This document shows, one piece after another, positions 1 to 45,222 of a stretch of 64,000 nucleotides of DNA. Under the pieces are notes generated by a model, which worked only from the letters and a program-made list of their open reading frames with translations, searched no databases and was not told where the DNA came from. The translations under genes were made by a program, and so were the position numbers. Within the stretch, counting starts at the first letter, position 1. Every line of letters starts with the position of its first letter. This DNA is from an uncultured Candidatus Saccharibacteria bacterium. Its GTDB lineage: Bacteria > Patescibacteriota > Minisyncoccia > Phycocordibacterales > G965230995. The stretch covers positions 592,213-656,212 of the forward strand of contig OZ246398.1 in the NCBI GenBank assembly GCA_965230995.1, given 5' to 3'.

Positions 1-1535
1 AGACTGATGGTGTTATAAGAAAAGAAAGCCAAATTAAACATAACGTGGATGTACACGAAAGATGTGGTACGCCTGTAGAATTTCTACCAACAACACAATG
101 GTTTGTTAAGATCCTTGATATGAAGGAAAGAATGTTAGAGGCAGGTAATAAAATAAATTGGCATCCAGAACATATGAAAAAGAGATATGAAGACTGGATA
201 AACGGTCTTAAATGGGATTGGTGTATATCAAGGGAACGTTTTTATGGAATACCAATACCAGTATTTAACTGTGATAAATGTGACCATATTATGGTTCCTA
301 GCATAGATGAGATGCCAATTGACCCCAAAAAAGAAAAAGATTTACAAGTGTGTCCGACTTGTAAAATTGGTAATATGATACCGGAAAAAAGTGTCTTAGA
401 TACATGGTTTACTTCCGCACTATCCACAGAAATTAATAATAGCCACCCTCTTAATGGAAAATTAAATGGTGAGATGTTTCCTATGTCTATGAGACCACAA
501 GCACATGACATTATTAGGACATGGGCTGTTTACTCTATTTTGATGTCTTTATATAAACATAATAATATTCCATGGGAGAATCTTATGATCTCAGGACATA
601 TATTAGTCCAAAAAGGAGAAAAAATTAGTAAAAAGACAGGTGGTGGAAAATACAAACCAGAAGATTTGATTAATCAAAAATCGGCTGATGCAATAAGGTA
701 TGCTATGTCAGGATCTTCTCTCGGGAAAGACACATATTTTGATGAAAAAGAAGTAGAAAAAGGCAAGAAATTAGTAACAAAACTTTACAATGCAGGTAAA
801 TTGATCCTAATCAAATTAAAAGGTTTCGACTCTAAAATAGAATTAAGAAATACCAATCTAGAAGCAATTGACCAGTGGATATTAAACAGATCGGTTGAGA
901 CTGCCCAAAAAATGGCAGTTGCCCTTGAGAAATATGAATATTCTCAAGCCCGTCAAATATTTGAGGATTTTTTCTGGAGAGAGTTTTGTGATAATTATTT
1001 AGAGATAGTAAAGAAGAGATTATCTATTGAATCAGTAGATGATAAATTAAAGATTTCAGCTCAATACGCATGCTACCATAGTTTCCTCAATATTCTAAAA
1101 ATGGCATCTCCTTTTATTCCTCACATAACAGAGGAGATGTTCCATGCAGATATTGTAACCAAAAAAGAAGGTGATAATACCGTAGAATCGGTCAATTCAA
1201 ATAGTAGTTCTGGTTATTTTAGCACATACGAAGGTATAAAAAGTATTCATAATACTTTATGGCCTTCTGTTAAAATAGAATATACTAATGATAAAAATGG
1301 AGAGAACGCAGATTTTGTCTTATCTGTTATCTCCGAAATAAGAAAATATAAGACTGATAATAAAATAAAATTAGGTACACCTGTCTCTGTTCTAAAAATA
1401 AGATGTTCAGAATTACAGAAAACGATGCTAAACGATTTTTTGAATGACATTGCTTCGTTATCTAGAGCAGAAAAAATTGAAATTGAAGTTGATAATTCAG
1501 ATAGTAATCAAATAGGTATTGAAATTACTTTATAG
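1..1535 (+). CDS. valS: Class I aminoacyl-tRNA synthetase, C-terminal portion. Most likely valyl-tRNA synthetase, 5'-truncated by the window edge.
   Basis: The frame is open from nt 3 with no upstream stop. Motifs seen: WDWCISRERFYGIPIP, LDTWFTSAL, and a KMSKS-like 'KISKKTG'. These fit ValRS better than IleRS or LeuRS. Confidence 0.7.
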   Translation, partial: TDGVIRKESQIKHNVDVHERCGTPVEFLPTTQWFVKILDMKERMLEAGNKINWHPEHMKKRYEDWINGLKWDWCISRERFYGIPIPVFNCDKCDHIMVPSIDEMPIDPKKEKDLQVCPTCKIGNMIPEKSVLDTWFTSALSTEINNSHPLNGKLNGEMFPMSMRPQAHDIIRTWAVYSILMSLYKHNNIPWENLMISGHILVQKGEKISKKTGGGKYKPEDLINQKSADAIRYAMSGSSLGKDTYFDEKEVEKGKKLVTKLYNAGKLILIKLKGFDSKIELRNTNLEAIDQWILNRSVETAQKMAVALEKYEYSQARQIFEDFFWREFCDNYLEIVKKRLSIESVDDKLKISAQYACYHSFLNILKMASPFIPHITEEMFHADIVTKKEGDNTVESVNSNSSSGYFSTYEGIKSIHNTLWPSVKIEYTNDKNGENADFVLSVISEIRKYKTDNKIKLGTPVSVLKIRCSELQKTMLNDFLNDIASLSRAEKIEIEVDNSDSNQIGIEITL

Positions 1536-1555
1536 CCTTAAATCATCAAAAATCA

Positions 1556-1585
1556 TTGACAAAATGATATTTTTCGTGCTATAAT
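1556..1585 (+). promoter_or_regulatory. Sigma70-like promoter: TTGACA, 18-nt spacer, TATAAT.
   Basis: Near-consensus -35 (1556-1561) and -10 (1580-1585). A GGAGGTG SD lies at 1620-1626, 5 nt before the ATG at 1632. Confidence 0.6.
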
Positions 1586-1631
1586 ATAAAAGGAAACTAA
1601 ACAGAGCAAGCAAACCTACGGAGGTGGTCAA

Positions 1632-2207
1632 ATGGACCTGACAATTTTGCTTGGTGTAATTGTGGGTGTTGTACACCTTGCTGGGTACTGGTTCTACCAC
1701 AAAGCTCAAAGGAAATCAGGAATCAAACCTGACCAATCGAGCTGGCTGATGTGGGCGGGAGGGAGTATTCTCAATCTGATCTCGTACTCAAAGATGAGTG
1801 GGGATTGGGTGAAGGACATTCTTCCTGCTGTCTGTGCCTTTGCGTGTATCATTTTGTTTGCTGAGCAGTGCTATCTGTTTGGCTTCAAAAAGATACCGCT
1901 CAAGGACATTCCGAGCTTCCTATGTGACCTAGGTGCAACTATGGTCTGGTACATTGCAGGTTCACCGCTCGTCGGTAACATTGCTTATCAGATTGCTACG
2001 GTTGCAACATTTGTACCTATCATTAGGGAGACAAGACGTGAGCCGATGTGCGAGGATCGATTGCCATGGATGACATGGTCAATCGCCTACGGTCTTGATG
2101 TGGTTCTGGTCATAACACGATGGAATCAGTGGGGTGATGTCGTTTATCCGCTGGTCTGTCTCGTGTTGCATATTCTAATGGCTGTCTCTGCAAAAAAAAA
2201 GCAGTAA
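1632..2207 (+). CDS. Polytopic membrane protein of unknown function, in a GC-rich stand-alone cassette.
   Basis: About six hydrophobic segments. Strong SD. GC-richer than its neighbours. Own promoter and terminator. Confidence 0.6.
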   Translation: MDLTILLGVIVGVVHLAGYWFYHKAQRKSGIKPDQSSWLMWAGGSILNLISYSKMSGDWVKDILPAVCAFACIILFAEQCYLFGFKKIPLKDIPSFLCDLGATMVWYIAGSPLVGNIAYQIATVATFVPIIRETRREPMCEDRLPWMTWSIAYGLDVVLVITRWNQWGDVVYPLVCLVLHILMAVSAKKKQ

Positions 2208-2218
2208 CAGAGTTGATG

Positions 2219-2260
2219 CCGGCACGCCCTTGAGAAAGGTGTGCCGTTGTTGTTTTTTTC
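2219..2260 (+). terminator. Rho-independent terminator.
   Basis: ggcacgcc...ggtgtgcc stem followed by a T7 run. Confidence 0.55.
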
Positions 2261-2294
2261 ATCATATCGTTTATAATTTATATACATAACTATC

Positions 2295-2813
2295 ATGCCT
2301 GAAAATTCAGAAAAAGAAACACATATTTATTCAGCTAAAAGTAATATAGCTGGAAAGGGATTATTTACTTCAAAATTTATTAAAAAAAATGAACTTGCTT
2401 TTGTTATGCAAGGACCAATTATTAATTACCACCCAATAAACAAAGAGGAGGCTTGCCAATTACCAAACATTGTTGGTATTGAGAAGGATAAATATATTGA
2501 CCCAATTGAACCGTATGTTTACATTAATCACTCTTGTGAACCAAACCTTGCATATATCGTTGTAGATAAAAAACCACATTTTTATGCTCTTAGAGATATA
2601 GATTTAGGAGAAGAACTTACCTTTGATTACTCTATTTCAGAATATTCAGATTGGGAAATGACATGTAGTTGTGGATCAAAAAAGTGTAGGAAGGTTATTA
2701 AATCTGTAGAAAAGCTTCCTGTCGATTTTTTTGAACAATATTTTCCTTTTATTCCAGAATTTTTTCAAAAGGTCTTTTTTAATAACTATATAAACGCAAA
2801 AGATGAAAAATAA
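2295..2813 (+). CDS. SET-domain protein (putative protein lysine methyltransferase).
   Basis: NHSCEPN and ELTFDY motifs, plus a post-SET CxCGSKKCRK. Confidence 0.75.
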   Translation: MPENSEKETHIYSAKSNIAGKGLFTSKFIKKNELAFVMQGPIINYHPINKEEACQLPNIVGIEKDKYIDPIEPYVYINHSCEPNLAYIVVDKKPHFYALRDIDLGEELTFDYSISEYSDWEMTCSCGSKKCRKVIKSVEKLPVDFFEQYFPFIPEFFQKVFFNNYINAKDEK

Positions 2814-3138
2814 CAAGTGGTTAAAATATACAATCGTCCTCGCGATATTTTTATTGGTATTTTGTCTTTCTTATTATTATCTTTCTCTCAAGAAAGATTT
2901 TTTTGTAATAATGAACGTCCCATGTGAGCAAGGTGATCCAGACGGTAATTGTTTTGTAAATGAAGATGATAACGGAGAAATTTTTCATTATAAGTTATTA
3001 AAAATAAAAGCAAGTGACATGCCAACATGCTCAGGATCTGAATGTGAATTTCCAAAGTGTGATAATGAGACTGCTGACTGTAGTTATGAATATTGTGAAG
3101 CTGGTAATGAGGATGGCTATATTTGCCTAGAAAAATAA
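2803..3138 (+). CDS. Small Cys-rich protein with an N-terminal TM or signal anchor.
   Basis: N-terminal hydrophobic helix followed by about ten Cys in an acidic domain. Sits between two SET genes. Confidence 0.45.
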   Translation: MKNNKWLKYTIVLAIFLLVFCLSYYYLSLKKDFFVIMNVPCEQGDPDGNCFVNEDDNGEIFHYKLLKIKASDMPTCSGSECEFPKCDNETADCSYEYCEAGNEDGYICLEK

Positions 3139-3139
3139 T

Positions 3140-3607
3140 ATGAAAAAGATTTTTTCTTCAAAAAGTAGCATAGATAAAAGCGGAATTTTTGCTGGAGAAA
3201 ATTTTAAAAAAGGGGAATTTGTAGTAAAATTAACTGGAAAATATATTAAATGGAAGTATAATGAAAAGACAGACAGACAAAAATGCGCTAACTGGTTCGG
3301 AATAAAAAAAGACCATTGGATTGATCCAGACTTTCCATTGTCACAGATTAATCATTCATGTGATCCGAACATCGGAATTAAAGGTAGAATTATGTTCTAT
3401 GCTTTGCGCGATATAGGAAAAGGAGAAGAACTAACTTTTGACTATTCTACAGCTGAGGAGGAATCGGATTGGCAGATGAAGTGTAAATGTAAGTCAAAAA
3501 AATGTAGGAAGTTTGTTACCTCAATAATGTTTCTGCCTGATAAGGTTTTTAGATCATATTTACCATTTATACCAACATATTTTAAAAAATTGTATTTTAA
3601 AAAGTAA
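3140..3607 (+). CDS. SET-domain protein, paralog of 2295-2813.
   Basis: NHSCDPN and ELTFDY motifs, plus CKCKSKKCRK. Confidence 0.75.
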   Translation: MKKIFSSKSSIDKSGIFAGENFKKGEFVVKLTGKYIKWKYNEKTDRQKCANWFGIKKDHWIDPDFPLSQINHSCDPNIGIKGRIMFYALRDIGKGEELTFDYSTAEEESDWQMKCKCKSKKCRKFVTSIMFLPDKVFRSYLPFIPTYFKKLYFKK

Positions 3608-6856: not shown

Positions 6857-6904
6857 TCCATGTGGATAACCGAGGGGAAATGGGTGTGGTAGAATTCCTC
6901 GGGT

Positions 6905-32795: not shown

Positions 32796-33251
32796 ATGAC
32801 AATAGCAGAAAATATAAAGAAATTGACAATAGAAGCGATGAAGGCCAAAGATCCTCTACGAACAGACACGCTTCGTGGATTAACTGCTGGTTTTGTTAGC
32901 GAGCTCACTTCACAAAAGAGACCTCCTAATGATCCTGTGACTGACGAAATTGCTTTGGCAGTAATCAAAAGACAAGTAAAGCAAAGAAAGGATTCTATCG
33001 AACAATTTACAAAAGGTGGTAGACCAGAATTGGCAGATAAAGAAAAATTGGAGCTTACGATACTCGAAAGTTTTCTCCCAGCACAAATGAGCGAAGAGGA
33101 AATTGAAAAAATTGTGAGCGCCAAAATGACAGAGCTCGGTGTAACAGATAAAAGCGGTATGGGAAAACTAATGGGAGCAGTAATGAAAGAAACGGGCGGA
33201 AATGCAGACGGAGCAATTGTAAAGAAAATAATAGAATCAAAGTTTAATTAA
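32796..33251 (+). CDS. GatB/YqeY-domain protein.
   Basis: YqeY-like helical repeats; typical size. Confidence 0.7.
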   Translation: MTIAENIKKLTIEAMKAKDPLRTDTLRGLTAGFVSELTSQKRPPNDPVTDEIALAVIKRQVKQRKDSIEQFTKGGRPELADKEKLELTILESFLPAQMSEEEIEKIVSAKMTELGVTDKSGMGKLMGAVMKETGGNADGAIVKKIIESKFN

Positions 33252-33258
33252 AAAATTC

Positions 33259-33297
33259 CACCCGCCGAAGGCTCTGCCTTCGGCGGGTTTCGTTTCT
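33259..33297. terminator. Bidirectional GC hairpin terminator.
   Basis: cccgccgaagg-ctct-gccttcggcggg followed by ttt. Confidence 0.7.
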
Positions 33298-33299
33298 GC

Positions 33300-33560
33300 T
33301 CAGTTGAGGTGTTTGGAATCGTAGATCTCCTTGCTTTTAGCGAGAAAGAGATTCCTCAAATCACCCAGAACTGCCAGAAACTTGGGGTAGGCTTCGGGAT
33401 GACGAGGCGAGATGTAAACAGAGACGTTTACACCAACACCGTTGCGAGAGAGTTCGAACCGAAGACCTTCGATTCGAAGATTCTTCATCACCATCTCGAC
33501 AGCACACAAAGAGACCATCTCCTCGACAGAAAACACGTGATCAGCATTGCGAGTACACAT
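33300..33560 (-). CDS. Hypothetical small protein (86 aa) in a GC-rich island.
   Basis: GGAGGGGG SD 6 nt before the ATG (MCTRNADHVF...). A TTTCCA-aagc-TGGAAA palindrome lies upstream. Confidence 0.4.
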   Translation of the reverse strand: MCTRNADHVFSVEEMVSLCAVEMVMKNLRIEGLRFELSRNGVGVNVSVYISPRHPEAYPKFLAVLGDLRNLFLAKSKEIYDSKHLN

Positions 33561-33812
33561 CTCGGCCCCCTCCGTTAAAGAACTAGTTTCCAGAATCACC
33601 ATGACTCTGGAAACTAGGAGCAAATATTGCGCATAATTTCCAAAGCTGGAAACAGAAAGTCCCCTTTCGGGGACTTTCTTTACGCAATTAACGATTTTTA
33701 GACTATTTCAGTTTTTGCATACAAAGAAAGCTCCCGAAGGGGATTCCCAGCAGCAGACCCAAAACTGAAATATTTAACTTCATAAATTAATAATATCAAC
33801 TAAATGTTTGCT

Positions 33813-33846
33813 GTCAAACAAAAAGGGTGCGCGCAAGGCACACCCA
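33813..33846 (-). terminator. Rho-independent terminator on the minus strand.
   Basis: gggtgtgc-cttgc-gcgcaccc followed by a T5 run on the minus strand. Confidence 0.55.
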
Positions 33847-33856
33847 CACAAAAGGA

Positions 33857-34051
33857 TCAGGGCTGACGGAGTGAAAAAGTGCCATCGGGCAACTTCACCA
33901 CACCAGCCTTCTCCATACCCAAATTGAACCACCTCCTCGCAAGCTGTTGGTCCTCCGCAGGCATTTTCGGAATGGAAGGACCATTTTGAAATGCCAAGAA
34001 AATCCGATTAGGATCAGGAGAACCGACTTGCACTACAGTTTGTTCGCTCAT
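33857..34051 (-). CDS. Hypothetical small protein (64 aa), co-regulated with the PDT-like gene.
   Basis: GTGGAGG SD 6 nt before ATG (MSEQTVVQ...). GC-rich. Own copy of the conserved upstream operator. Confidence 0.45.
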   Translation of the reverse strand: MSEQTVVQVGSPDPNRIFLAFQNGPSIPKMPAEDQQLARRWFNLGMEKAGVVKLPDGTFSLRQP

Positions 34052-34081
34052 ACCAAACCTCCACACAATGTTGTTGACGTT

Positions 34082-34158
34082 AAAGAACTATTGGTACAAC
34101 ATTTTGTACCAAAATGTAGCTACGTAAATACATAACGACATTTTGATAAAAAACAAAA
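34082..34158 (-). promoter_or_regulatory. Promoter/operator region, copy A. Contains the palindrome GGTACAAC-ATTT-TGTACC.
   Basis: About 75 nt, near-identical to 35081-35157. Both lie upstream of minus-strand genes. Confidence 0.55.
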
Positions 34159-34210
34159 TTAATTTTGGGCTGGGCTGTCGTTTCTCTCCGACAGCCCTTC
34201 CCAATTTGAC

Positions 34211-35062
34211 TCAGTCCCTCACCTCAAAGGGACCAAAGATTTGGTTTTTTGTCACACACAAAGAGAAGAGCTTGCGAGCAATACGAAACCTCCACAGAGC
34301 ACTCCGCTTCATCTCGACTTCGACGCCGAAATGATACGTGCCGTTCTCGATATGAACAGAATGAATCTGCGTCATATTAATCCCGAGAAGCACAAGCGGA
34401 GTGAGAGCAAGCCACAGAGCCCCAGGTATGTTGTGTACCTGGAACGTGAGCACTGCTCTGTTCGTCTTGCCCACCGCCCCAGACACACCACCCGGTGCAA
34501 GCAGGTAGAATGTCGTGACGGCCGGTTCGTCTTCGAATCCCTCGATGAGGACATCGAGACCATAGACCTGGGCGTTCGCAACCGGCCCGAGACAAGCCCA
34601 GTTCTGGTAGCTTTCGTCCTCGGCTACCAATCTCGATGCTTCGCCATTGCTCGGAACCTCCATCGTTTTGACTTGAAGACTACCGACCTTCGCCTTGCAT
34701 GCACCAAAGGACTTTTGATGCCCGATGATGCCAGCGACCTGCTCGATACTCATACCCTTCCTCGCCATCAAGGCAAAAGTAATGGGCATTTTGTATCCAG
34801 CAACGATCGCAGGTACACTGCCCGTGCGAAGAAGAGCGATAAGCGCATCGAGAGACTCGGTCACGCGACCCTGAGCCAGAGTCTCGACAGCAAGAGCGCC
34901 CCAAGCCGATTTCGTCATCACCACAGACACAACATCACCATTTCTGGCAGTCGGAATGTAGTTTCGATCGGAAACAGCAGGAGCCCCAAAGTTCTGGACG
35001 AAGTACTCATATGCTACATGAGTAAACGTAGAACCAAACGGCCCGAGATAAGTAACATTCAT
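34211..35062 (-). CDS. pheA: Prephenate dehydratase-like protein (PDT domain plus C-terminal ACT domain).
   Basis: N-terminal VTYLGPFGSTFTHVAY, a TTF motif corresponding to the catalytic TRF, and an ACT-like C-terminus with the ESRP motif diverged. GC-rich. Confidence 0.6.
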   Translation of the reverse strand: MNVTYLGPFGSTFTHVAYEYFVQNFGAPAVSDRNYIPTARNGDVVSVVMTKSAWGALAVETLAQGRVTESLDALIALLRTGSVPAIVAGYKMPITFALMARKGMSIEQVAGIIGHQKSFGACKAKVGSLQVKTMEVPSNGEASRLVAEDESYQNWACLGPVANAQVYGLDVLIEGFEDEPAVTTFYLLAPGGVSGAVGKTNRAVLTFQVHNIPGALWLALTPLVLLGINMTQIHSVHIENGTYHFGVEVEMKRSALWRFRIARKLFSLCVTKNQIFGPFEVRD

Positions 35063-35080
35063 CGTAGATCCCTCTCTTTA

Positions 35081-35157
35081 GTGTGATTGTAAAGAACTCT
35101 CGGTACAACGTTTTGTACCAAAGTGTTGCTGTGTAATACATAGCGACATTTTGATAC
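35081..35157 (-). promoter_or_regulatory. Promoter/operator region, copy B. Contains the palindrome GGTACAAC-GTTT-TGTACC.
   Basis: Direct-repeat copy of 34082-34158. Confidence 0.55.
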
Positions 35158-35180
35158 AAAACAAAAGCCCCGCTTACGCG
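35154..35180. terminator. GC hairpin terminator, with a degenerate second copy at 35218-35245.
   Basis: aaaagccccgc-ttac-gcggggctttt. Confidence 0.6.
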
Positions 35181-35314
35181 GGGCTTTTGCTGTAGTTTCA
35201 TTTCTCTTTTTTAAATACTAGCAAAATTCCCCGCTACGCGGTTATATGCAAAAAAGAAAAATGAAAACCAATTTGACTTCATATTTAAATACTATCAGTT
35301 TAGAGTATTTTTTG

Positions 35315-36385: not shown

Positions 36386-36389
36386 AGAA

Positions 36390-36404
36390 TATGGAAAAAA
36401 TAGC
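36390..36404. repeat. 15-bp perfect direct repeat tatggaaaaaatagc, left copy.
   Basis: Identical copy at 36838-36852. Together they bracket the GC-rich element. Confidence 0.7.
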
Positions 36405-36837
36405 TAATATAAAGTATGATTTACACGGGTTCCAACACCAACGACGAAAGGAGGATACATGCACAGCCCGAATGCCTGACGAATCTCATTTCTGTATAAT
36501 GGGCCAACCACCAAAACCGACCCCACAGGCTAATTTGGGGCACGGCTACAGGGTCATGGTGGACATGTTCTTCGGAGCAAGCCTTCGCACCGGATGCCTA
36601 CCAAGTGAGTTAGGAAAAGAAGGGCGAAGTTTGTGGGTTTGCTCAATGGGAATATGCTGTTGTTCCCCCAAGGACGTACAACCCGATCAACCACGAAGTG
36701 GTAAACAACAGGTGGTAGTGATACCACGGTGTCTGGTAGACACACCCAGATGAAGTGGCTTTGCCCACATACTCTACCAAATTCCGGTGCGTCAGCAATG
36801 ACGCACCAATTTATTTATCGAGAAATAATGATTTTAA
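36405..36837 (+). ncRNA. Unclassified GC-rich structured non-coding element ending in a hairpin plus U-tract terminator.
   Basis: No credible ORF on either strand. Multiple GC stems. Terminator ggtgcgtca-gcaa-tgacgcacc plus a T-run at 36786-36818. Flanked by 15-bp direct repeats. Confidence 0.4.
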
Positions 36838-36852
36838 TATGGAAAAAATAGC
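36838..36852. repeat. 15-bp perfect direct repeat tatggaaaaaatagc, right copy.
   Basis: See the left copy at 36390-36404. Confidence 0.7.
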
Positions 36853-36981: not shown

Positions 36982-37054
36982 GGCCTTATCGTCTAACGGT
37001 TAGGACGAAGCCTTCTCAAGGCTTAAATCGGGGTTCGATTCCCCGTAAGGTCAC
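36982..37054 (+). tRNA. tRNA-Glu (anticodon CUC), no encoded CCA.
   Basis: Cloverleaf folded by hand. Acceptor GGCCTTA/TAAGGTC. Anticodon stem AAGCC/GGCTT with loop TTCTCAA. T-arm CGGGG-TTCGATT-CCCCG. Confidence 0.8.
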
Positions 37055-37056
37055 AT

Positions 37057-37104
37057 AAAACAGTTAGTCCGGATGCGAATAGCATTCGGGCTTTACTGTT
37101 TTAC
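37057..37104 (+). terminator. Structured terminator after the tRNA.
   Basis: aaaacagt...actgtttt outer stem enclosing ccggatgc/gcattcgg. Confidence 0.5.
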
Positions 37105-37410
37105 TGAACATATGGGAATCGAAAGACGGAGCCGGTATACAAGATTTTACGAAATGAAATGGAGTAAAATACTTGTCGGCGAGTCGGGGTCGCGACCTTC
37201 GTTGCGGAGATTTATCGAAGCAGAAGAGTTGTGACCGATTCCCCGTTTGAAGTGATAGCGAACAATTATACTTAGTGACTCGTGATCACAGCAATTAAAT
37301 AAATAGGAAACCTATACTGTCCATGTAATGGAAGATTTCCCGTAGGGATACATCTCCCATAACTTTAAATATGGCATTTTGGAATAATACGCAATGGAAT
37401 ATTATTATAT

Positions 37411-37638
37411 ATGCATATGCCAAGAGCAATTTATAATGATGAACATAAGGAAATTATTGAACGCTTAAAACAGGCTCGTCTTGAAGCTGATCTCGGTCAA
37501 ATTGAAGTAGCTGAAAAACTCGGCAGAACTCAGTCATATGTCTCAAAAATAGAATCGGGACAGAGACGCCTTGACGTTTTGCAACTTAAAGAGTTTGCAA
37601 AACTTTATAAAAAATCGCTAGATTTTTTCGTTAAATAA
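37411..37638 (+). CDS. XRE-family HTH regulator; probable controller (C) protein of an R-M system.
   Basis: 75-aa HTH_3 domain (QIEVAEKLGRTQSYVSKIESG). Its stop lies 2 nt before the downstream gene, the classic C-R arrangement. Confidence 0.6.
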   Translation: MHMPRAIYNDEHKEIIERLKQARLEADLGQIEVAEKLGRTQSYVSKIESGQRRLDVLQLKEFAKLYKKSLDFFVK

Positions 37639-37640
37639 TT

Positions 37641-38213
37641 ATGAAAATTTTAGAACATAAAGCAAAAGTATTTGGTCAAGAATGTAAGCTTGAACTTATG
37701 CATTTTAATAAAAATGATGGAAAGGAATGGAAAAGAATTTTTGATATTTGGAAAGAGTTAAAGCTTGGTTTGAGAGGTTATAAATCCCGTGAACCAAATA
37801 TGCCTGAGGGCTTATCAGAAGTCGCCTTTTGTCTTTGGTCGGGTTCTGCGAGATATATAAAATTAAAAGGCGCCAAGAAAGGAATAGCTGGTTCATTTGA
37901 TACTTTTAATTTAAAGTCAAACAAGGCTCAACAAATAAAAGCTTGTAGTATTGAAGATGATCTAACTTCCTTTGGACCAAAATCAAAATGGGACGATTTG
38001 TATTTTGTGGATTTTTATAACGGCGGTAAAATTGATGGTAAATTTGATATCTATTTAATTCCTAATAAATACATCAAAAATCAATCATTGAATAAGAAAG
38101 AATCTTTTACAGATCAGCAGGCACAAAAAAGACGACCTCGTTTTGGAATTAAAAAACAAATTATTACAAAATATAAAATCAAACCTCTAGCTAGTAAGGT
38201 AAAAGTTTGGTAA
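37641..38213 (+). CDS. Putative type II restriction endonuclease (hypothetical).
   Basis: Position follows the C gene and is convergent with the MTase. No clear family match. Possible degenerate D...(E/Q)xK. Confidence 0.35.
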   Translation: MKILEHKAKVFGQECKLELMHFNKNDGKEWKRIFDIWKELKLGLRGYKSREPNMPEGLSEVAFCLWSGSARYIKLKGAKKGIAGSFDTFNLKSNKAQQIKACSIEDDLTSFGPKSKWDDLYFVDFYNGGKIDGKFDIYLIPNKYIKNQSLNKKESFTDQQAQKRRPRFGIKKQIITKYKIKPLASKVKVW

Positions 38214-39791
38214 TTACTCCATTGCTTTCATCATTTGTTTTGCTACAGCTTCAACGACAGGTACACTCACAGAATTTCCAGCTTGTTTGTATAGTGCTGA
38301 GTCAGATATTTTTGGTAAAATATAATCTTTTGGAAAACCCTGTATCCTAAAGCATTCTAATGGTGTCAGCTTTCGGATGCCTTTCTTGTCCTTAATAATT
38401 GGAACATTGTGCCCACCTGTACCCATGTTTGCGGTTAATGTCGGACAAACTCCACTTTTATTTTCCCTTACATATTGCCTTCTCCATTGATAAACTTTAC
38501 CTTCCTCTTTTACTACATTTTTAAGTTTCTCAAACAATGGTTTACCGTTGTAATAATATTTTTCTGAGACATTACTCTCTAATAAATCAGTTATTTTTGT
38601 TGTTAATTTAATTGGGCTTGGAAACTCAAACCTATCTAAATATATTTTGTTCTTAAAACCAACAATATAAATTCTTTCACGATTTTGAGGAATATTTCCG
38701 TATTCCATTGTGTTTAGGACTTTTACTTTTACATGATAACCCAGGTCTTTTAATGCATCCTCAATAATTTTAAAAGTTTTTCCACCATCATGACTTTTTA
38801 GATTCTTAACATTTTCTAAAAGAAAACCTTCTGGTTTTCTTGCTTCCAAAATACGAGCAATATCAAAAAATAAGTTTCCTCTACCCTTCTCATCATTAAA
38901 CCCCTGTCTATATCCCGCAATAGAAAATGCCTGGCAAGGAAAACCACCTAAAAGAAAATCGAACTTTGGGAGATCATCTATTCCAATTTTTCTTATATCC
39001 TCGACAACCAATTTTGAATCTCTAAAATTCAGATCATAAGTATCCTTACATCGTGTTTCAAAATCGTTTGCAAAAACAGTTTTAAACCCTGCGTTTTCAA
39101 AGCCCAAGCGAATACCACCAACTCCAGCAAATAAATCTATTGTTTTAAACCCATGTTTTGTTTTCTTTTGCTCAAATTCTTTAGGTTCATTATTTGGGTT
39201 ACTAATAACCTGAATTACAACACCCCGAACCTCTACGAACTCTCTAAAAAGAGATTTCATATTTGGGTTCCTTGGTTCAAGTCTGAACCTATCTTTTTCT
39301 TTATAAAGTCTTTTAAGAGTTGCTTCATTTTCGTCAATAATTGCAACAACGGTTTGTCCATTTTCTGCAACAGATTGCTGTTTTATAACAACAATATCGC
39401 CATCAAAAATTCCGTCATCAATCATAGAATCACCCACAACACGGAGGGCATAATATCCTTCGGCTGTTTTAATTTGAGGATTGATTACAGAAACAGAGCC
39501 ATCTCTTTCTTCAATTGCTGGAAGTGGATATCCGGCTTTTATACTTCCAATTATTGGAATTTCTACAATTGACCTTATTTCTTTTTTAGGAGCTAAACTT
39601 CTAGCGGAATTTTCTGATTTTGAAAGATATCCCTTTGTCTTTAGTGAATTGATATGTTCGTGAACTGTAGATACTGCTTTTAGTTTTAGTTTTTTTCTTA
39701 TTTCCTCGATAGTGGGAGCTATACCATTTTCACCAATATATAGATTTATAAAGTCAAAGACTTGTTTTTGTTTTTTTGTAAGGCTTGGCAT
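38214..39791 (-). CDS. LexA (HTH plus S24 autoprotease) fused to a DNA cytosine-5 methyltransferase.
   Basis: LexA part, aa 1-~200: LexA DNA-binding domain, cleavage site IKAG, catalytic GDSM Ser and TLKRL Lys. MTase part, aa ~205-525: motif I DLFAGVGG, motif IV GFPCQAFS, ENV, QNRERIYIVG, RKLTPLECFRIQGFP. Single uninterrupted ORF with no internal start. Confidence 0.75.
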   Translation of the reverse strand: MPSLTKKQKQVFDFINLYIGENGIAPTIEEIRKKLKLKAVSTVHEHINSLKTKGYLSKSENSARSLAPKKEIRSIVEIPIIGSIKAGYPLPAIEERDGSVSVINPQIKTAEGYYALRVVGDSMIDDGIFDGDIVVIKQQSVAENGQTVVAIIDENEATLKRLYKEKDRFRLEPRNPNMKSLFREFVEVRGVVIQVISNPNNEPKEFEQKKTKHGFKTIDLFAGVGGIRLGFENAGFKTVFANDFETRCKDTYDLNFRDSKLVVEDIRKIGIDDLPKFDFLLGGFPCQAFSIAGYRQGFNDEKGRGNLFFDIARILEARKPEGFLLENVKNLKSHDGGKTFKIIEDALKDLGYHVKVKVLNTMEYGNIPQNRERIYIVGFKNKIYLDRFEFPSPIKLTTKITDLLESNVSEKYYYNGKPLFEKLKNVVKEEGKVYQWRRQYVRENKSGVCPTLTANMGTGGHNVPIIKDKKGIRKLTPLECFRIQGFPKDYILPKISDSALYKQAGNSVSVPVVEAVAKQMMKAME

Positions 39792-39881
39792 ATTGTATTT
39801 AAAATACTATTGAGCTACAATTATATTATAACCGAACAAAAACCGAAAAGTAAGGCTACTTATCCACAATCAAGTAAGTAT

Positions 39882-40460
39882 ATGATTTCAGAAAAAGAAT
39901 TTAAAGAAAAATTAATCACCAAATTAAATTTTATTAATTCTGGTTGGAGAGATGGTGATCTAGATTTATTTTTAGGGCCAAAGTCGGATATTATCAATGA
40001 TCAGTTAAAAGTCGCCATAGAAATTAAGGATGACACAAAATTTAATAGGAGAATGCCGACAACCTCTGGAGAAATAGTATTGAATGGAACGAATCTTTCA
40101 GAAAAAAATAGACAGTTCAAAGATGACATTAAAAGTGCCAACAAAAAATTTAAGAGTTATATTGGATACAAAACAATATTATTATTAAGAACAGAGATGA
40201 TAGATTTCTTTTCTGATATTGTAAATTACACAATTGATGGACCAAGATCATTTGCAAAGATTAATGGAGAACTAGTCTGTGCTGGTAGACCTAGCACATT
40301 TTGGTCTGGTCACGATAAAAGCACAGCAGAAGTGGGGGGAATATTATTTTGGGGAAACAGATGCACTTATAGGATAAATGAAAATCCAAATATAAATAAG
40401 AAAAGAATTATTGATAAAATTGATTTGGAAAAAATGATGAATATTAGTATTGATCTATAG
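39882..40460 (+). CDS. Hypothetical protein (possible PD-(D/E)xK nuclease) at the island edge.
   Basis: GDLDLF...(20)...AIEIKDD resembles D...ExK. Start chosen at the internal Met because the ORF-track start overlaps the MTase start. Confidence 0.35.
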   Translation: MISEKEFKEKLITKLNFINSGWRDGDLDLFLGPKSDIINDQLKVAIEIKDDTKFNRRMPTTSGEIVLNGTNLSEKNRQFKDDIKSANKKFKSYIGYKTILLLRTEMIDFFSDIVNYTIDGPRSFAKINGELVCAGRPSTFWSGHDKSTAEVGGILFWGNRCTYRINENPNINKKRIIDKIDLEKMMNISIDL

Positions 40461-40478
40461 ATTTATTATAAAACATAA

Positions 40479-41777
40479 TCACCTCCTCCCCCACTCTTCC
40501 TCCTGCCTCACAAGAAGGCTTTCGGCAAGCTGTGGCTCTGCCATTATTTCAAGCACCGCCTTTTCCATTCGAATTGATTGAGACCCCTTTATCAAAACTG
40601 TATCGTATGGATCGACAATTCCTTCGAGGAATTTTCCTGCAATTTGTGAATCTTCGAATTGATATAATTTCTTTTCACTAAAACCGTTTTCTAGAGCGCC
40701 CTCGGCAATCTTTCTCGCACGTACACCGACTGTAACCAAAACATCGGCGACTTCGGCACATATCTTGCCTATTTCTTTGTGCTCTTCGACTGAATATTGT
40801 CCCAATTCCATCATATCCCCTAGCACAGCAATTTTCTTTTGTTCAGTCTGTTCTTTAATCTGTCTCAAAGTCTCTAATGCTTCTCTCATTGCAATTGGTG
40901 AGGCATTGTATGTATCGTCAATGATCAAAGAATGTTTGATACCGGAAATGAGTCTCATTCTTCCTGGTGGTGTTATGTGCTCCATCATTACTGAAGACAA
41001 TTCGACACCATTTATTCCAAAGACCTTTGCTACTCCTATAGCACCAAGGATTGGATAAATATGTTGTTTTCCTATTGCCCCGATTAGGTTAAATGGAACA
41101 CTGTTTCCTTCGTAATCTATACGAAAATTAATTCCAGTTGGTCTGTCTGAATTATCGTAAGAGATTTCATAATTTGAAGCTTTAAAATATGAGCCATCTC
41201 CCAATCCAAAAGAATATCTTTTTGCCTTTGTTTTTTCTTTTGCAAGGTGAGCCTTTTCGTCGTCTTCGATATATATTAGTGTACCTGTTTCTTTTAGAGC
41301 AGAAACTAGATATGATTTTTCTTTTACTAATTCATCACTGTCTTTAAAATATTCCACGTGAACTGGAGTTTTGCCGATTGCGGTAAATACGACAACATCT
41401 GGCTTTATCCATTTTGAAACTCTACGAATATCCCCCGGCCTGTCTGCACCTATTTCGAGGACAAGTATTTCCGGATATTTTGATCTAAATATTATTAAAA
41501 GAAAGCCTTCGATAAAATTCCTAATCCACAAAAATGGATTCGCCCATCCATTTTCACAATTTAAAATAGTGAGAGGTATTCCTATTTCGCTATTAAAACT
41601 CTTTTGGCTTTTTCTTGTATTAAATTTATCTTTGAGTGCTGTATATATTGCATCCTTTGTCGATGTTTTTCCTACACTACCGGTTATGGCAACGATCTTT
41701 GGTTTGTATTTTGCGAGAACTAGTCTGGCTTCTAAAATTAGTACGCTTTGGATAACCGATTTTAAAAATGATTTCAT
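40479..41777 (-). CDS. murF: UDP-MurNAc-tripeptide--D-Ala-D-Ala ligase.
   Basis: GSVGKTSTKD P-loop; Mur ligase domains. Confidence 0.85.
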   Translation of the reverse strand: MKSFLKSVIQSVLILEARLVLAKYKPKIVAITGSVGKTSTKDAIYTALKDKFNTRKSQKSFNSEIGIPLTILNCENGWANPFLWIRNFIEGFLLIIFRSKYPEILVLEIGADRPGDIRRVSKWIKPDVVVFTAIGKTPVHVEYFKDSDELVKEKSYLVSALKETGTLIYIEDDEKAHLAKEKTKAKRYSFGLGDGSYFKASNYEISYDNSDRPTGINFRIDYEGNSVPFNLIGAIGKQHIYPILGAIGVAKVFGINGVELSSVMMEHITPPGRMRLISGIKHSLIIDDTYNASPIAMREALETLRQIKEQTEQKKIAVLGDMMELGQYSVEEHKEIGKICAEVADVLVTVGVRARKIAEGALENGFSEKKLYQFEDSQIAGKFLEGIVDPYDTVLIKGSQSIRMEKAVLEIMAEPQLAESLLVRQEEEWGRR

Positions 41778-45149: not shown

Positions 45150-45222
45150 TATCCCACTTGATATATATTGTATTACATTTCATCCCACTTTACAAAACAT
45201 GTTATCCACATTTGCCCACAAA
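45150..45222 (-). promoter_or_regulatory. MraZ-box array: five direct repeats of (A)AGTGG(G/A)A on the mraZ strand, phased at about 10-21 bp.
   Basis: Plus-strand CCAC/CCCAC cores at 45154, 45163, 45184, 45206 and 45215. They lie 25-95 bp upstream of the mraZ start. Confidence 0.6.

Follow-up and report, generated by a model that had tools for sequence, protein, structure and literature searches.

A LexA-cytosine methyltransferase fusion with its own candidate operator in a mobile, C-controlled Bsp6I-family restriction cassette of Patescibacteria

How restriction-modification (R-M) systems spare the DNA of their own host, whether on entry into a new cell, during DNA repair or under replication stress, is a central question of their biology. 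The known answers of type II systems are controller (C) proteins, methyltransferases that repress their own synthesis, and antisense RNAs; methyltransferases that autoregulate through an N-terminal DNA-binding region form an established class. The known answer that is tied to DNA damage, restriction alleviation, is to our knowledge confined to type I systems, and in EcoKI it consists of a ClpXP-dependent loss of HsdR after damage. Here we describe a type II locus in a 64-kb stretch of DNA from an uncultured Candidatus Saccharibacteria bacterium (contig OZ246398.1, positions 592,213 to 656,212; this whole stretch is called the window, and coordinates refer to it unless a related locus is named), in which a LexA repressor is fused to a 5-methylcytosine (m5C) methyltransferase. 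We propose that the LexA domain makes this enzyme an autorepressor that is cleaved upon DNA damage, with a rise in methylation as the outcome, and that the fusion gene resides in a mobile, C-controlled cassette of the Bsp6I family; we give this reading a probability of roughly 0.55. Its parts differ in strength. The presence of a C-controlled Bsp6I-type system is well supported, and repression of the methyltransferase promoter by the fused LexA domain is strongly suggested by the evidence on the operator; the RecA-stimulated release of that repression by self-cleavage, with raised methylation, is a step that we infer, its one basis being the invariance of the cleavage machinery. The restriction system itself is ordinary, and the LexA-based control is the unusual part.

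The gene set described in an earlier note on this DNA was recovered at or near the same coordinates by open reading frame (ORF), tRNA and profile searches. A C gene (37417-37638, plus strand) is followed by ORF190 (37641-38213, plus strand), which starts 2 nt past the C stop codon, and the fusion gene (38214-39791, minus strand) meets ORF190 tail to tail with a gap of 0 nt. The note had read this arrangement as a type II R-M system in which a C-R operon converges on an m5C methyltransferase with a LexA N-terminus, and our searches bear this out. The region is also present, in identical form, on a 36-kb contig assembled from a public sequencing run (L001; labels of this form denote the related loci fetched for comparison).

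The fusion protein is 525 amino acids (aa) long, and Pfam and NCBIfam profiles divide it into a LexA winged-helix domain (aa 1-65; 39597-39791), an S24 peptidase (aa 79-193; 39213-39557) with the putative catalytic pair Ser122 and Lys160 and the predicted cleavage site Ala86-Gly87 (39531-39536), a variable linker (aa 196-210) that is the least conserved part of the protein, and an M.HhaI-like methyltransferase (aa 215-521; 38229-39149) with Cys286 and Glu326. The fusion scores 172 bits with the lexA equivalog model TIGR00498, for which the cut-off is 111, and 344 bits with the dcm model. Residues 1-198 align with residues 1-198 of Escherichia coli LexA and residues 210-518 with M.HhaI (E 2e-59), and PF00145 is matched over profile positions 1-323 of 324 (E 7.5e-93), with the complete set of C5 methyltransferase motifs, Pro-Cys and Glu-Asn-Val included. 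As judged from its sequence, the protein is a complete LexA, comprising DNA-binding domain and S24 peptidase, joined to a complete M.HhaI-like m5C enzyme. Among 79 close homologues that were aligned, Ala86, Ser122, Lys160, Cys286 and Glu326 are invariant (79/79), and Gly87 is kept in 78, with a single change to Ser; the LexA part is presumably self-cleaving. Relatives of the fusion are encoded in 487 species-representative genomes, all of them Patescibacteria and mostly of Paceibacteria lineages, and the best 80 of these, 72-94% identical to the window's fusion, form the comparison set used here. One 85.7-kb contig (CAIRHC010000009.1) carries two copies (L014 and L038), each 83% identical to that of the window; the partner is a Bsp6I-like endonuclease for one copy and an unrelated protein of 300 aa for the other. 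A gene-calling artefact was considered and rejected, as a single frame of 524-529 aa is present in most of the best 120 protein clusters, all of which carry the three fusion domains, and in almost every one of the 80 genomes.

In having an N-terminal DNA-binding domain on an m5C methyltransferase and a candidate operator in its own promoter, the fusion is like the SsoII, Ecl18kI, EcoRII and MspI enzymes. Unlike their short helix-turn-helix (HTH) regions, however, it carries a whole LexA with an intact S24 peptidase, and so a possible input for a damage signal. It also departs from the SsoII/Ecl18kI class in the range of enzymes concerned. With the LexA part as query against 1.84 billion representative proteins, the ~65 closest clusters proved to be mostly proteins of 300-890 aa with LexA at the N-terminus; 47 proteins were tested with profiles. 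All 47 match both LexA_DNA_bind and Peptidase_S24, and the methyltransferase families matched (one protein may match more than one) are N6_N4_Mtase in 29, Eco57I-type in seven, D12/Dam-like in five, N6_Mtase in five, MmeI-type in four and C5 in three. By these profiles the LexA module is joined to at least four methyltransferase classes besides m5C, with N6/N4, Dam-like, Eco57I-type and MmeI-type enzymes among them. The Ala-Gly pair, the Ser and the Lys are invariant across the 47 fusions, which share 32-57% identity. Another fusion of a self-cleaving peptidase, here in a defence-like protein, was seen in L055, where a 699-aa frame (1054-3150 of that locus) with a P-loop domain (GKPGTGKT) and a C-terminal region similar to the LexA S24 peptidase lies 6 kb from the LexA-methyltransferase gene.

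The promoter of the fusion gene supplies the second line of evidence. An 80-locus alignment shows that the 80-nt stretch ahead of the gene is conserved in almost every locus, with the elements in the order TGTGGATAA(C), a TTGnnT -35 box, the direct repeat TTCGG-N6-TTCGG, a TATAAT hexamer and a conserved leader. On the minus strand of the window the -10 hexamer, read from the sequence and kept in the alignment, is at 39825-39830 and the repeat at 39832-39847, where it fills the -35/-10 spacer; its 11-bp period puts both TTCGG half-sites on one face of the helix. A perfect TTCGG-N6-TTCGG occurs once in the window, at this promoter, and 83 of the 84 perfect matches in ~1.1 Mb of fetched loci are directly upstream of LexA-methyltransferase genes, which belong to three methyltransferase classes; no regulon of repair genes sharing the operator was found in these loci or in the window. 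For example, the same repeat precedes a LexA-N6/N4 methyltransferase gene with a convergent TaqI-like endonuclease partner in L083, where the LexA part is 47% identical, and a LexA-Eco57I-type methyltransferase gene in L090, within an Alw26I-type system that has a second C5 methyltransferase. The LexA parts of the N6/N4 and Eco57I-type fusions that share the repeat are 47-54% identical to that of the window, and in both loci (L083, 563-2791; L090, 4001-8800) a TGTGGATAAC box and the repeat are found together upstream. In L092, from the closed genome CP179892.1, TGTGGATAA is missing and the repeat is inverted and lies in the 5' leader, past the -10 box and ahead of the start codon, which indicates that the repeat travels with the LexA domain and not with the promoter hexamers.

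The recognition helix S-T-x-H-x-H is kept in all fusion classes, and we take it to be the helix type of Gram-positive LexA, with the half-site GTTCG. The LexA box of Alphaproteobacteria, GTTC-N7-GTTC, is a direct repeat with the same 11-bp geometry. We regard TTCGG-N6-TTCGG as the candidate operator of the fused LexA domain. The fusion is like LexA in its full-length match above the equivalog cut-off, in the retained Ala-Gly, Ser and Lys, in the STxHxH helix and in the candidate operator in its own promoter, and unlike the SOS repressor in the methyltransferase fused to it, in an operator that is seen only at its own gene, with no regulon detected, and in its coexistence in some genomes with a separate stand-alone LexA. 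Such stand-alone genes, near the fusion in L065 and L074, encode a different helix and have no such repeat upstream, and on this ground the fusion circuit appears to be separate from the regulon of the host.

The other conserved element of the promoter, TGTGGATAA, is nearly invariant in the alignment and forms the right end of the cassette (39860-39868, minus strand); it is the reverse complement of the DnaA-box consensus TTATCCACA. We considered it as the LexA operator and put it aside, as it also occurs before mraZ, before another gene in the window and 34 times elsewhere in the loci, and is missing from L092, where the TTCGG repeat is kept; it is taken to be a host-factor site or a promoter element. 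The window holds three perfect copies (6861-6869, plus strand; 39860-39868 and 45202-45210, minus strand), each of them in an intergenic region ahead of a gene that is read in the same direction as the site. A distance of 29 nt separates the copy before mraZ from a TACAAT box, which matches the spacing from TGTGGATAA to the -10 box of the methyltransferase gene, and in several related loci the 9-mer is again found close to where the cell-division cluster begins.

The behaviour of the operator also bears on a quite different explanation, in which the fusion serves its organism as the SOS master regulator, a core gene beside which the neighbouring nucleases are incidental. Its amino-acid conservation (72-94%, against 46-53% for MurF in the same pairs of genomes), its NCBI name of 'transcriptional repressor LexA', the lack of any other lexA in the window, and its recurrence at the same site, between murF and tRNA-Glu, in L005, L006 and L034 would all fit a core gene. 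However, in the genome pairs that share this site the fusion has 80-90% protein identity and 0.48-0.63 third-codon identity, compared with 48-53% and 0.36-0.39 for MurF, and because the fusion gene is the less diverged of the two at third codon positions, the cassette is younger than the genomes that hold it, indicating horizontal transfer together with strong purifying selection. Its context differs in most loci, one contig has two copies, and a restriction-type gene always abuts it; taken with an operator found only at its own promoter across ~1.1 Mb and with the stand-alone LexA of L065 and L074, these observations make a core SOS function very unlikely.

The circuit that we favour would work as follows. 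The C protein, with its conserved operator, would drive the Bsp6I-family endonuclease, and the LexA part, dimerised through its S24 domain, would bind TTCGG-N6-TTCGG in its own -35/-10 spacer and thereby fix the set point of the methyltransferase. DNA damage, including breaks made by the system's own endonuclease at under-methylated sites, would produce RecA filaments, which would induce self-cleavage at Ala86-Gly87, detach the DNA-binding domain and derepress the promoter. Methylation would then rise, making this a type II counterpart of restriction alleviation. As proposed here, the circuit resembles type I alleviation in that damage would shift the balance towards protection of the chromosome, and departs from the EcoKI case in that this would be done by making more methyltransferase through repressor self-cleavage and not by proteolysis of a restriction subunit. 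The methyltransferase with its promoter and the C gene with its candidate operator are two conserved arms between which the endonuclease gene is exchanged.

Two other accounts accept much of the same evidence. In the first, the LexA part serves for DNA binding and dimerisation only, by which the methyltransferase regulates its own synthesis in the manner of SsoII and Ecl18kI, and self-cleavage and the SOS response are irrelevant. The operator is all but confined to the promoter of the fusion itself, as such a module would require, methyltransferases of this kind are well established, and recA was not seen in the window. The difficulty is that the Ala-Gly, Ser and Lys are invariant in the 79 close fusions (bar the one Gly87 to Ser) and in the 47 distant ones, over five methyltransferase classes; an HTH would be enough for autorepression alone, and this invariance is hard to explain unless proteolysis is used. 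We consider simple autoregulation unlikely for this reason. In the second account the logic is that of a suicide or abortive switch, in which RecA activation by damage or phage leads to cleavage and destabilisation of the methyltransferase, so that the endonuclease kills the cell that is infected or is losing the cassette. The sequence evidence for cleavage competence serves this account equally, the fragments of E. coli LexA are degraded after cleavage, and R-M systems are known to act as addiction modules (PMC3874152). Against it, cleavage would take off only the first 86 residues and leave the S24 and methyltransferase domains intact, and the operator position predicts derepression and hence more enzyme; a killing switch seems to us a most improbable outcome.

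The C protein (73 aa) is of the Xre/HTH_3 type, with matches to Pfam HTH_3 (E 2.6e-12) and PADLOC Control_protein (E 5e-4); among solved structures C.BclI is matched at E 0.005, and generic Xre proteins score higher. That a C gene is present agrees with the earlier note, which had placed its start at 37411 (giving 75 aa); the second ATG, at 37417, is the likelier start. Alignments with homologues begin at residue 2 or 3, and most of the related loci compared have no start codon at the position of the first ATG. The left end of the cassette, where DNA homology starts, is also the candidate C operator and promoter (37369-37416, plus strand; TATATGGCATTTTGGAATAATACGCAATGGAATATTATTATAT). A 42-nt block before the C gene, which in the window begins TATATGGCATTTTGGAATAATACGCAATGGAATATT, is kept in ~25 loci irrespective of the downstream endonuclease family, and the candidate operator holds three TGG(A/C)AAT-like direct repeats. 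The C gene itself is present in ~25 loci with five different endonuclease families, and the order of a small HTH gene directly upstream of, and co-oriented with, the endonuclease gene is the same in at least 13 loci. The likely start at 37417 lies very close to the promoter, which recalls the leaderless C transcripts, of which pvuIIC in the PvuII circuit is an example (PMC2175313). In the small Xre-type gene that lies directly upstream of R, co-oriented and 2 nt apart, the locus is like the PvuII, AhdI, Esp1396I and BclI systems, and the conserved candidate operator block and a start codon near the promoter, as in pvuIIC, are further likenesses to C-controlled systems. The differences are the direct repeats in place of the usual inverted-repeat C-boxes, the weak similarity to solved C proteins, and a methyltransferase that has an independent regulator of its own.

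ORF190 (190 aa) matches PF09504 (RE_Bsp6I) over residues 9-176 with 40.6 bits at a cut-off of 25 (E 2.8e-10), and PADLOC REase_II at E 1.4e-24. The earlier note had found no recognisable family for either of two putative nucleases; for ORF190 this no longer holds, and for the second, ORF192 (see below), it does. Some of the 429 homologues of ORF190 are named 'Bsp6I family type II restriction endonuclease' by NCBI, and E56, E60, D87, Q98 and K100 are invariant in ORF190 and 28 homologues. An AlphaFold (AF2) model has a mean predicted local distance difference test score (pLDDT) of 91.8, and its Foldseek matches are weak, none of them significant and all of them PD-(D/E)XK nucleases (DpnI, influenza PA endonuclease, RecU). 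By its profile matches ORF190 is a Bsp6I-family type II restriction endonuclease, with a predicted specificity of GCNGC. Bsp6I itself, from Bacillus sp. RFL6, cuts GC^NGC (family description PF09504) and is listed among the PD-(D/E)XK enzymes backed by mutagenesis (PMC2441816, PMC3424549). The locus shares with the Bsp6I system the family-model match, an m5C methyltransferase partner and a depletion of GCNGC in the host DNA. The match of ORF190 to the family of Bsp6I, a PD-(D/E)XK enzyme related to PvuII, is a distant one, and the central acidic position of the motif is Gln98 in ORF190; the system further differs in the 210-residue LexA extension of its methyltransferase, in its C protein and in a specificity that is predicted.

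The pairing of the fusion with a restriction-type gene is general. In every related locus with sequence beyond the fusion stop codon there is a convergent ORF, mostly after a gap of 0-9 nt and at most 74 nt, and the arrangement of fusion and ORF190 is therefore not due to chance. These partner ORFs fall into at least eight unrelated families. Bsp6I-like partners, 45-93% identical to ORF190, occur in 29 loci; the other families include one with an NgoFVII C-terminal B3-like domain, one of PDDEXK_5 type and five without annotation, and for the seven non-Bsp6I families NCBIfam gave no match and Pfam none for five. Where the endonuclease family differs, DNA homology with the window is found in two arms, 37369 to ~37640 (operator and C gene) and ~38211 to 39868 (methyltransferase gene and promoter), from which it follows that the stop codons of C and M exactly delimit the segment in which the endonuclease gene has been swapped. 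The methyltransferase is conserved throughout, including the target-recognition region (major-residue frequency 0.8-0.97), and this uniformity suggests that one specificity is probably served by interchangeable endonucleases; the swapped families presumably recognise the same site. That site is probably GCNGC, to judge by the Bsp6I-like partners and by site counts. NgoFVII recognises GCSGC. In the window GCNGC occurs 31 times against ~87 expected (ratio 0.35), which places it among the three short palindromes with the lowest ratios. In the DNA around fusion genes (980 kb) the ratio is 0.63, compared with 1.01 in 273 kb of related murF loci, and the control sites GGNCC and CTNAG do not differ between these two sets. 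Strong under-representation relative to dinucleotide-preserving shuffles was also seen in the window for TTAA, CATG, CTNAG and GATC (ratios 0.35-0.62), and may reflect other restriction systems of the genome.

Several points weigh against the damage-responsive reading. First, the binding of the LexA part to the repeat, the RecA dependence of cleavage, the direction of the regulation and the GCNGC specificity are all four deduced. Secondly, neither recA nor a host lexA was seen in the 64-kb window, and the RecA input is to that extent assumed; cleavage could also inactivate or destabilise the methyltransferase, which would reverse the logic. Thirdly, a direct-repeat operator is unusual for LexA outside the Alphaproteobacteria, and TGTGGATAA, which is equally conserved, could itself be bound, either in place of the repeat or in addition to it. 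Fourthly, CATG, CTNAG and TTAA are as depleted as GCNGC in the window, or more so, and CCNGG also differs between the fusion and murF sets of loci. Lastly, with its direct repeats the candidate C operator is not a canonical palindromic C-box.

The extent of the cassette is well defined by comparison of the related loci with the window. The right edge of homology is at exactly 39868 in ~55 loci, and the left edge is at 37369 in nearly all of at least 20 loci in which the C gene is present; the segment 37369-39868 is a mobile R-M cassette of 2.5 kb that comprises the C operator, C, R and the LexA-m5C methyltransferase gene with its promoter. It is found in many unrelated contexts, with different surroundings in most loci, and the earlier view of this region as accessory, horizontally moving DNA is upheld to that extent. 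As for its means of transfer, homologous recombination through the conserved arms is the route that we propose. Carriage by phages was considered and rejected, as none of the phage records matches as much as 80% of the fusion; the one viral contig matches the methyltransferase part only. Just outside the left end of the cassette, a G-rich low-complexity stretch (e.g. CGGCGGGGGGTGTGGGGGGAGCCGGCAAAAAATGGAAAGGAAA) lies 60-140 nt upstream of the C gene in L047, L008, L023, L044 and L022; the window does not have it.

On the left the cassette is followed, 315 bp past its end, by a tRNA-Glu gene with anticodon CUC (36982-37054, plus strand; ARAGORN, and Rfam tRNA at 62.8 bits), a native neighbour outside the cassette, with a terminator-like hairpin directly 3' of it (37056-37103, plus strand; inverted repeat I22, 18-nt arms, 78% complementary). 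On the right, murF (40479-41777, minus strand; Pfam Mur_ligase_M and Mur_ligase_C) is the last gene of the native mraZ-rsmH-ftsL-ftsI-murF block, the synteny of which is also seen in L001 and 30 related loci. A tRNA-Glu gene within 40-800 bp after murF is the common arrangement, present in at least 15 related genomes, so that the murF-tRNA-Glu adjacency is ancestral synteny. The tRNA gene is on the strand of murF in at least 15 related loci and on the opposite strand in the window, and it is opposite in the occupied loci with strand determined (the window, L006, L101 and L102). The cassette lies between the two genes in the window, L005, L006 and L034, and other cargo occupies this position in L101 and L102. 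In the closest relatives of murF (74-80% MurF identity), a membrane protein gene and an acetyltransferase gene come after murF, neither ORF192 nor the cassette is present there, and the contigs stop before any tRNA.

Between the cassette and murF lies ORF192 (39882-40460, plus strand), which begins 14 bp past the right cassette end. It had been counted as 193 aa in the earlier note; it has 192 aa from its ATG, and if read from a TTG at 39762 it would have 232 aa and overlap the methyltransferase start. No match was found in Pfam, NCBIfam or PADLOC. D36 and the E47-I-K49 motif are invariant among its 28 homologues, in the AF2 model (pLDDT 91.4) the elements follow the order expected of a PD-(D/E)XK core, alpha-beta-beta-beta-alpha-beta, and its Foldseek matches, to XisH, Vsr and Hjc, are weak and none is significant. 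Homologues of ORF192 are neighboured by genes for a macro-domain protein, an integrase, Mrr and glycosyltransferases. A Vsr-like role in the repair of deaminated m5C was considered and rejected, as linkage to m5C methyltransferases is lacking.

This gene and the tRNA were central to the model of the earlier note, according to which 36982-40478 is a degraded tRNA-targeting island with two candidate novel endonucleases, ORF190 and ORF192. The region is indeed accessory, with a GC content of 28-33% across 37250-40250; 11 nt of the tRNA-Glu 3' arm recur at 37237-37247 (CGATTCCCCGT); and ORF192 has its invariant D...E-x-K and a confident nuclease-like model. However, the conserved unit leaves out both ORF192 and the tRNA, ORF190 is in a known family, and ORF192 was found in none of the 80 fusion loci. 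In three of the four contexts of its homologues there is no adjoining DNA methyltransferase gene, and in the fourth the nearest, ~2 kb away, belongs to another R-M system. ORF192 is therefore not to be counted as part of the R-M system, and is treated as a solitary PD-(D/E)XK-like gene that happens to adjoin the cassette. Nor is the tRNA-Glu shown to be an integration site, since its adjacency to murF is common in relatives, there is no integrase among the ORFs of the region (as the earlier note had also observed), no pair of flanking repeats is present, and repeats of the tRNA 3' end are not present at both borders; the sole tRNA-derived repeat is the 11-nt copy, 190 bp from the tRNA and not at the far border, which could be the remnant of an older integration or a chance match. 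A tRNA-targeted island of this extent is in our judgement highly doubtful.

Some further features lie to the left of the tRNA. A non-coding stretch between pyrD and the tRNA (36425-36815) is richer in GC (43-44%) and ends with a strong hairpin (~36785-36806) followed by a T-run; it has no Rfam match, and its folding energy is unremarkable (z -1.05). An exact 17-nt repeat, AATATGGAAAAAATAGC, is found at 36388-36404 and 36836-36852, in each case ~10 nt before a TATA-rich box; one copy is ahead of the GC-rich stretch and the other ahead of tRNA-Glu, and the two may be twin promoters. Further left, a foreign-looking 2-kb segment (33250-35280) has 45-55% GC, compared with ~35% for the genome, and contains a prephenate-dehydratase-like ORF (34211-35062, minus strand) immediately upstream of which a match to Rfam Phe_leader falls just short of the threshold (53.3 bits, cut-off 55; 35158-35283, minus strand); a comparison of the segment with E. 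coli genomes gave no match.

No description of LexA-methyltransferase fusions was found in the literature searched, and a 2026 preprint on the methyltransferases of these bacteria does not mention LexA. We suggest tentatively, and at somewhat less than even odds, that these fusions are a widespread and apparently undescribed layer of R-M control in Patescibacteria, in which a portable LexA with a private operator is attached to at least five methyltransferase classes and RecA-sensed damage, with self-restriction as one source, leads to repressor cleavage and more methylation. If so, they would provide a built-in circuit against autoimmunity that is insulated from the host SOS regulon, and a direct link from the DNA-damage signal to type II modification; because several methyltransferase classes are involved, this would be a general design principle. 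The repressor and its operator would also be a compact damage-responsive pair, orthogonal to the host LexA. The cassette is in addition a natural case of the replacement of one isospecific endonuclease by another beside a fixed methyltransferase, and a source of several endonuclease families, as yet uncharacterised, with possible activity at GCNGC-type sites. Patescibacteria mostly lack CRISPR and are thought to rely on restriction systems (PMC4742961). The fusion is present in hundreds of species of this phylum, and in them LexA control, if it operates as proposed, may be what allows endonucleases to be swapped freely beside a fixed methyltransferase.

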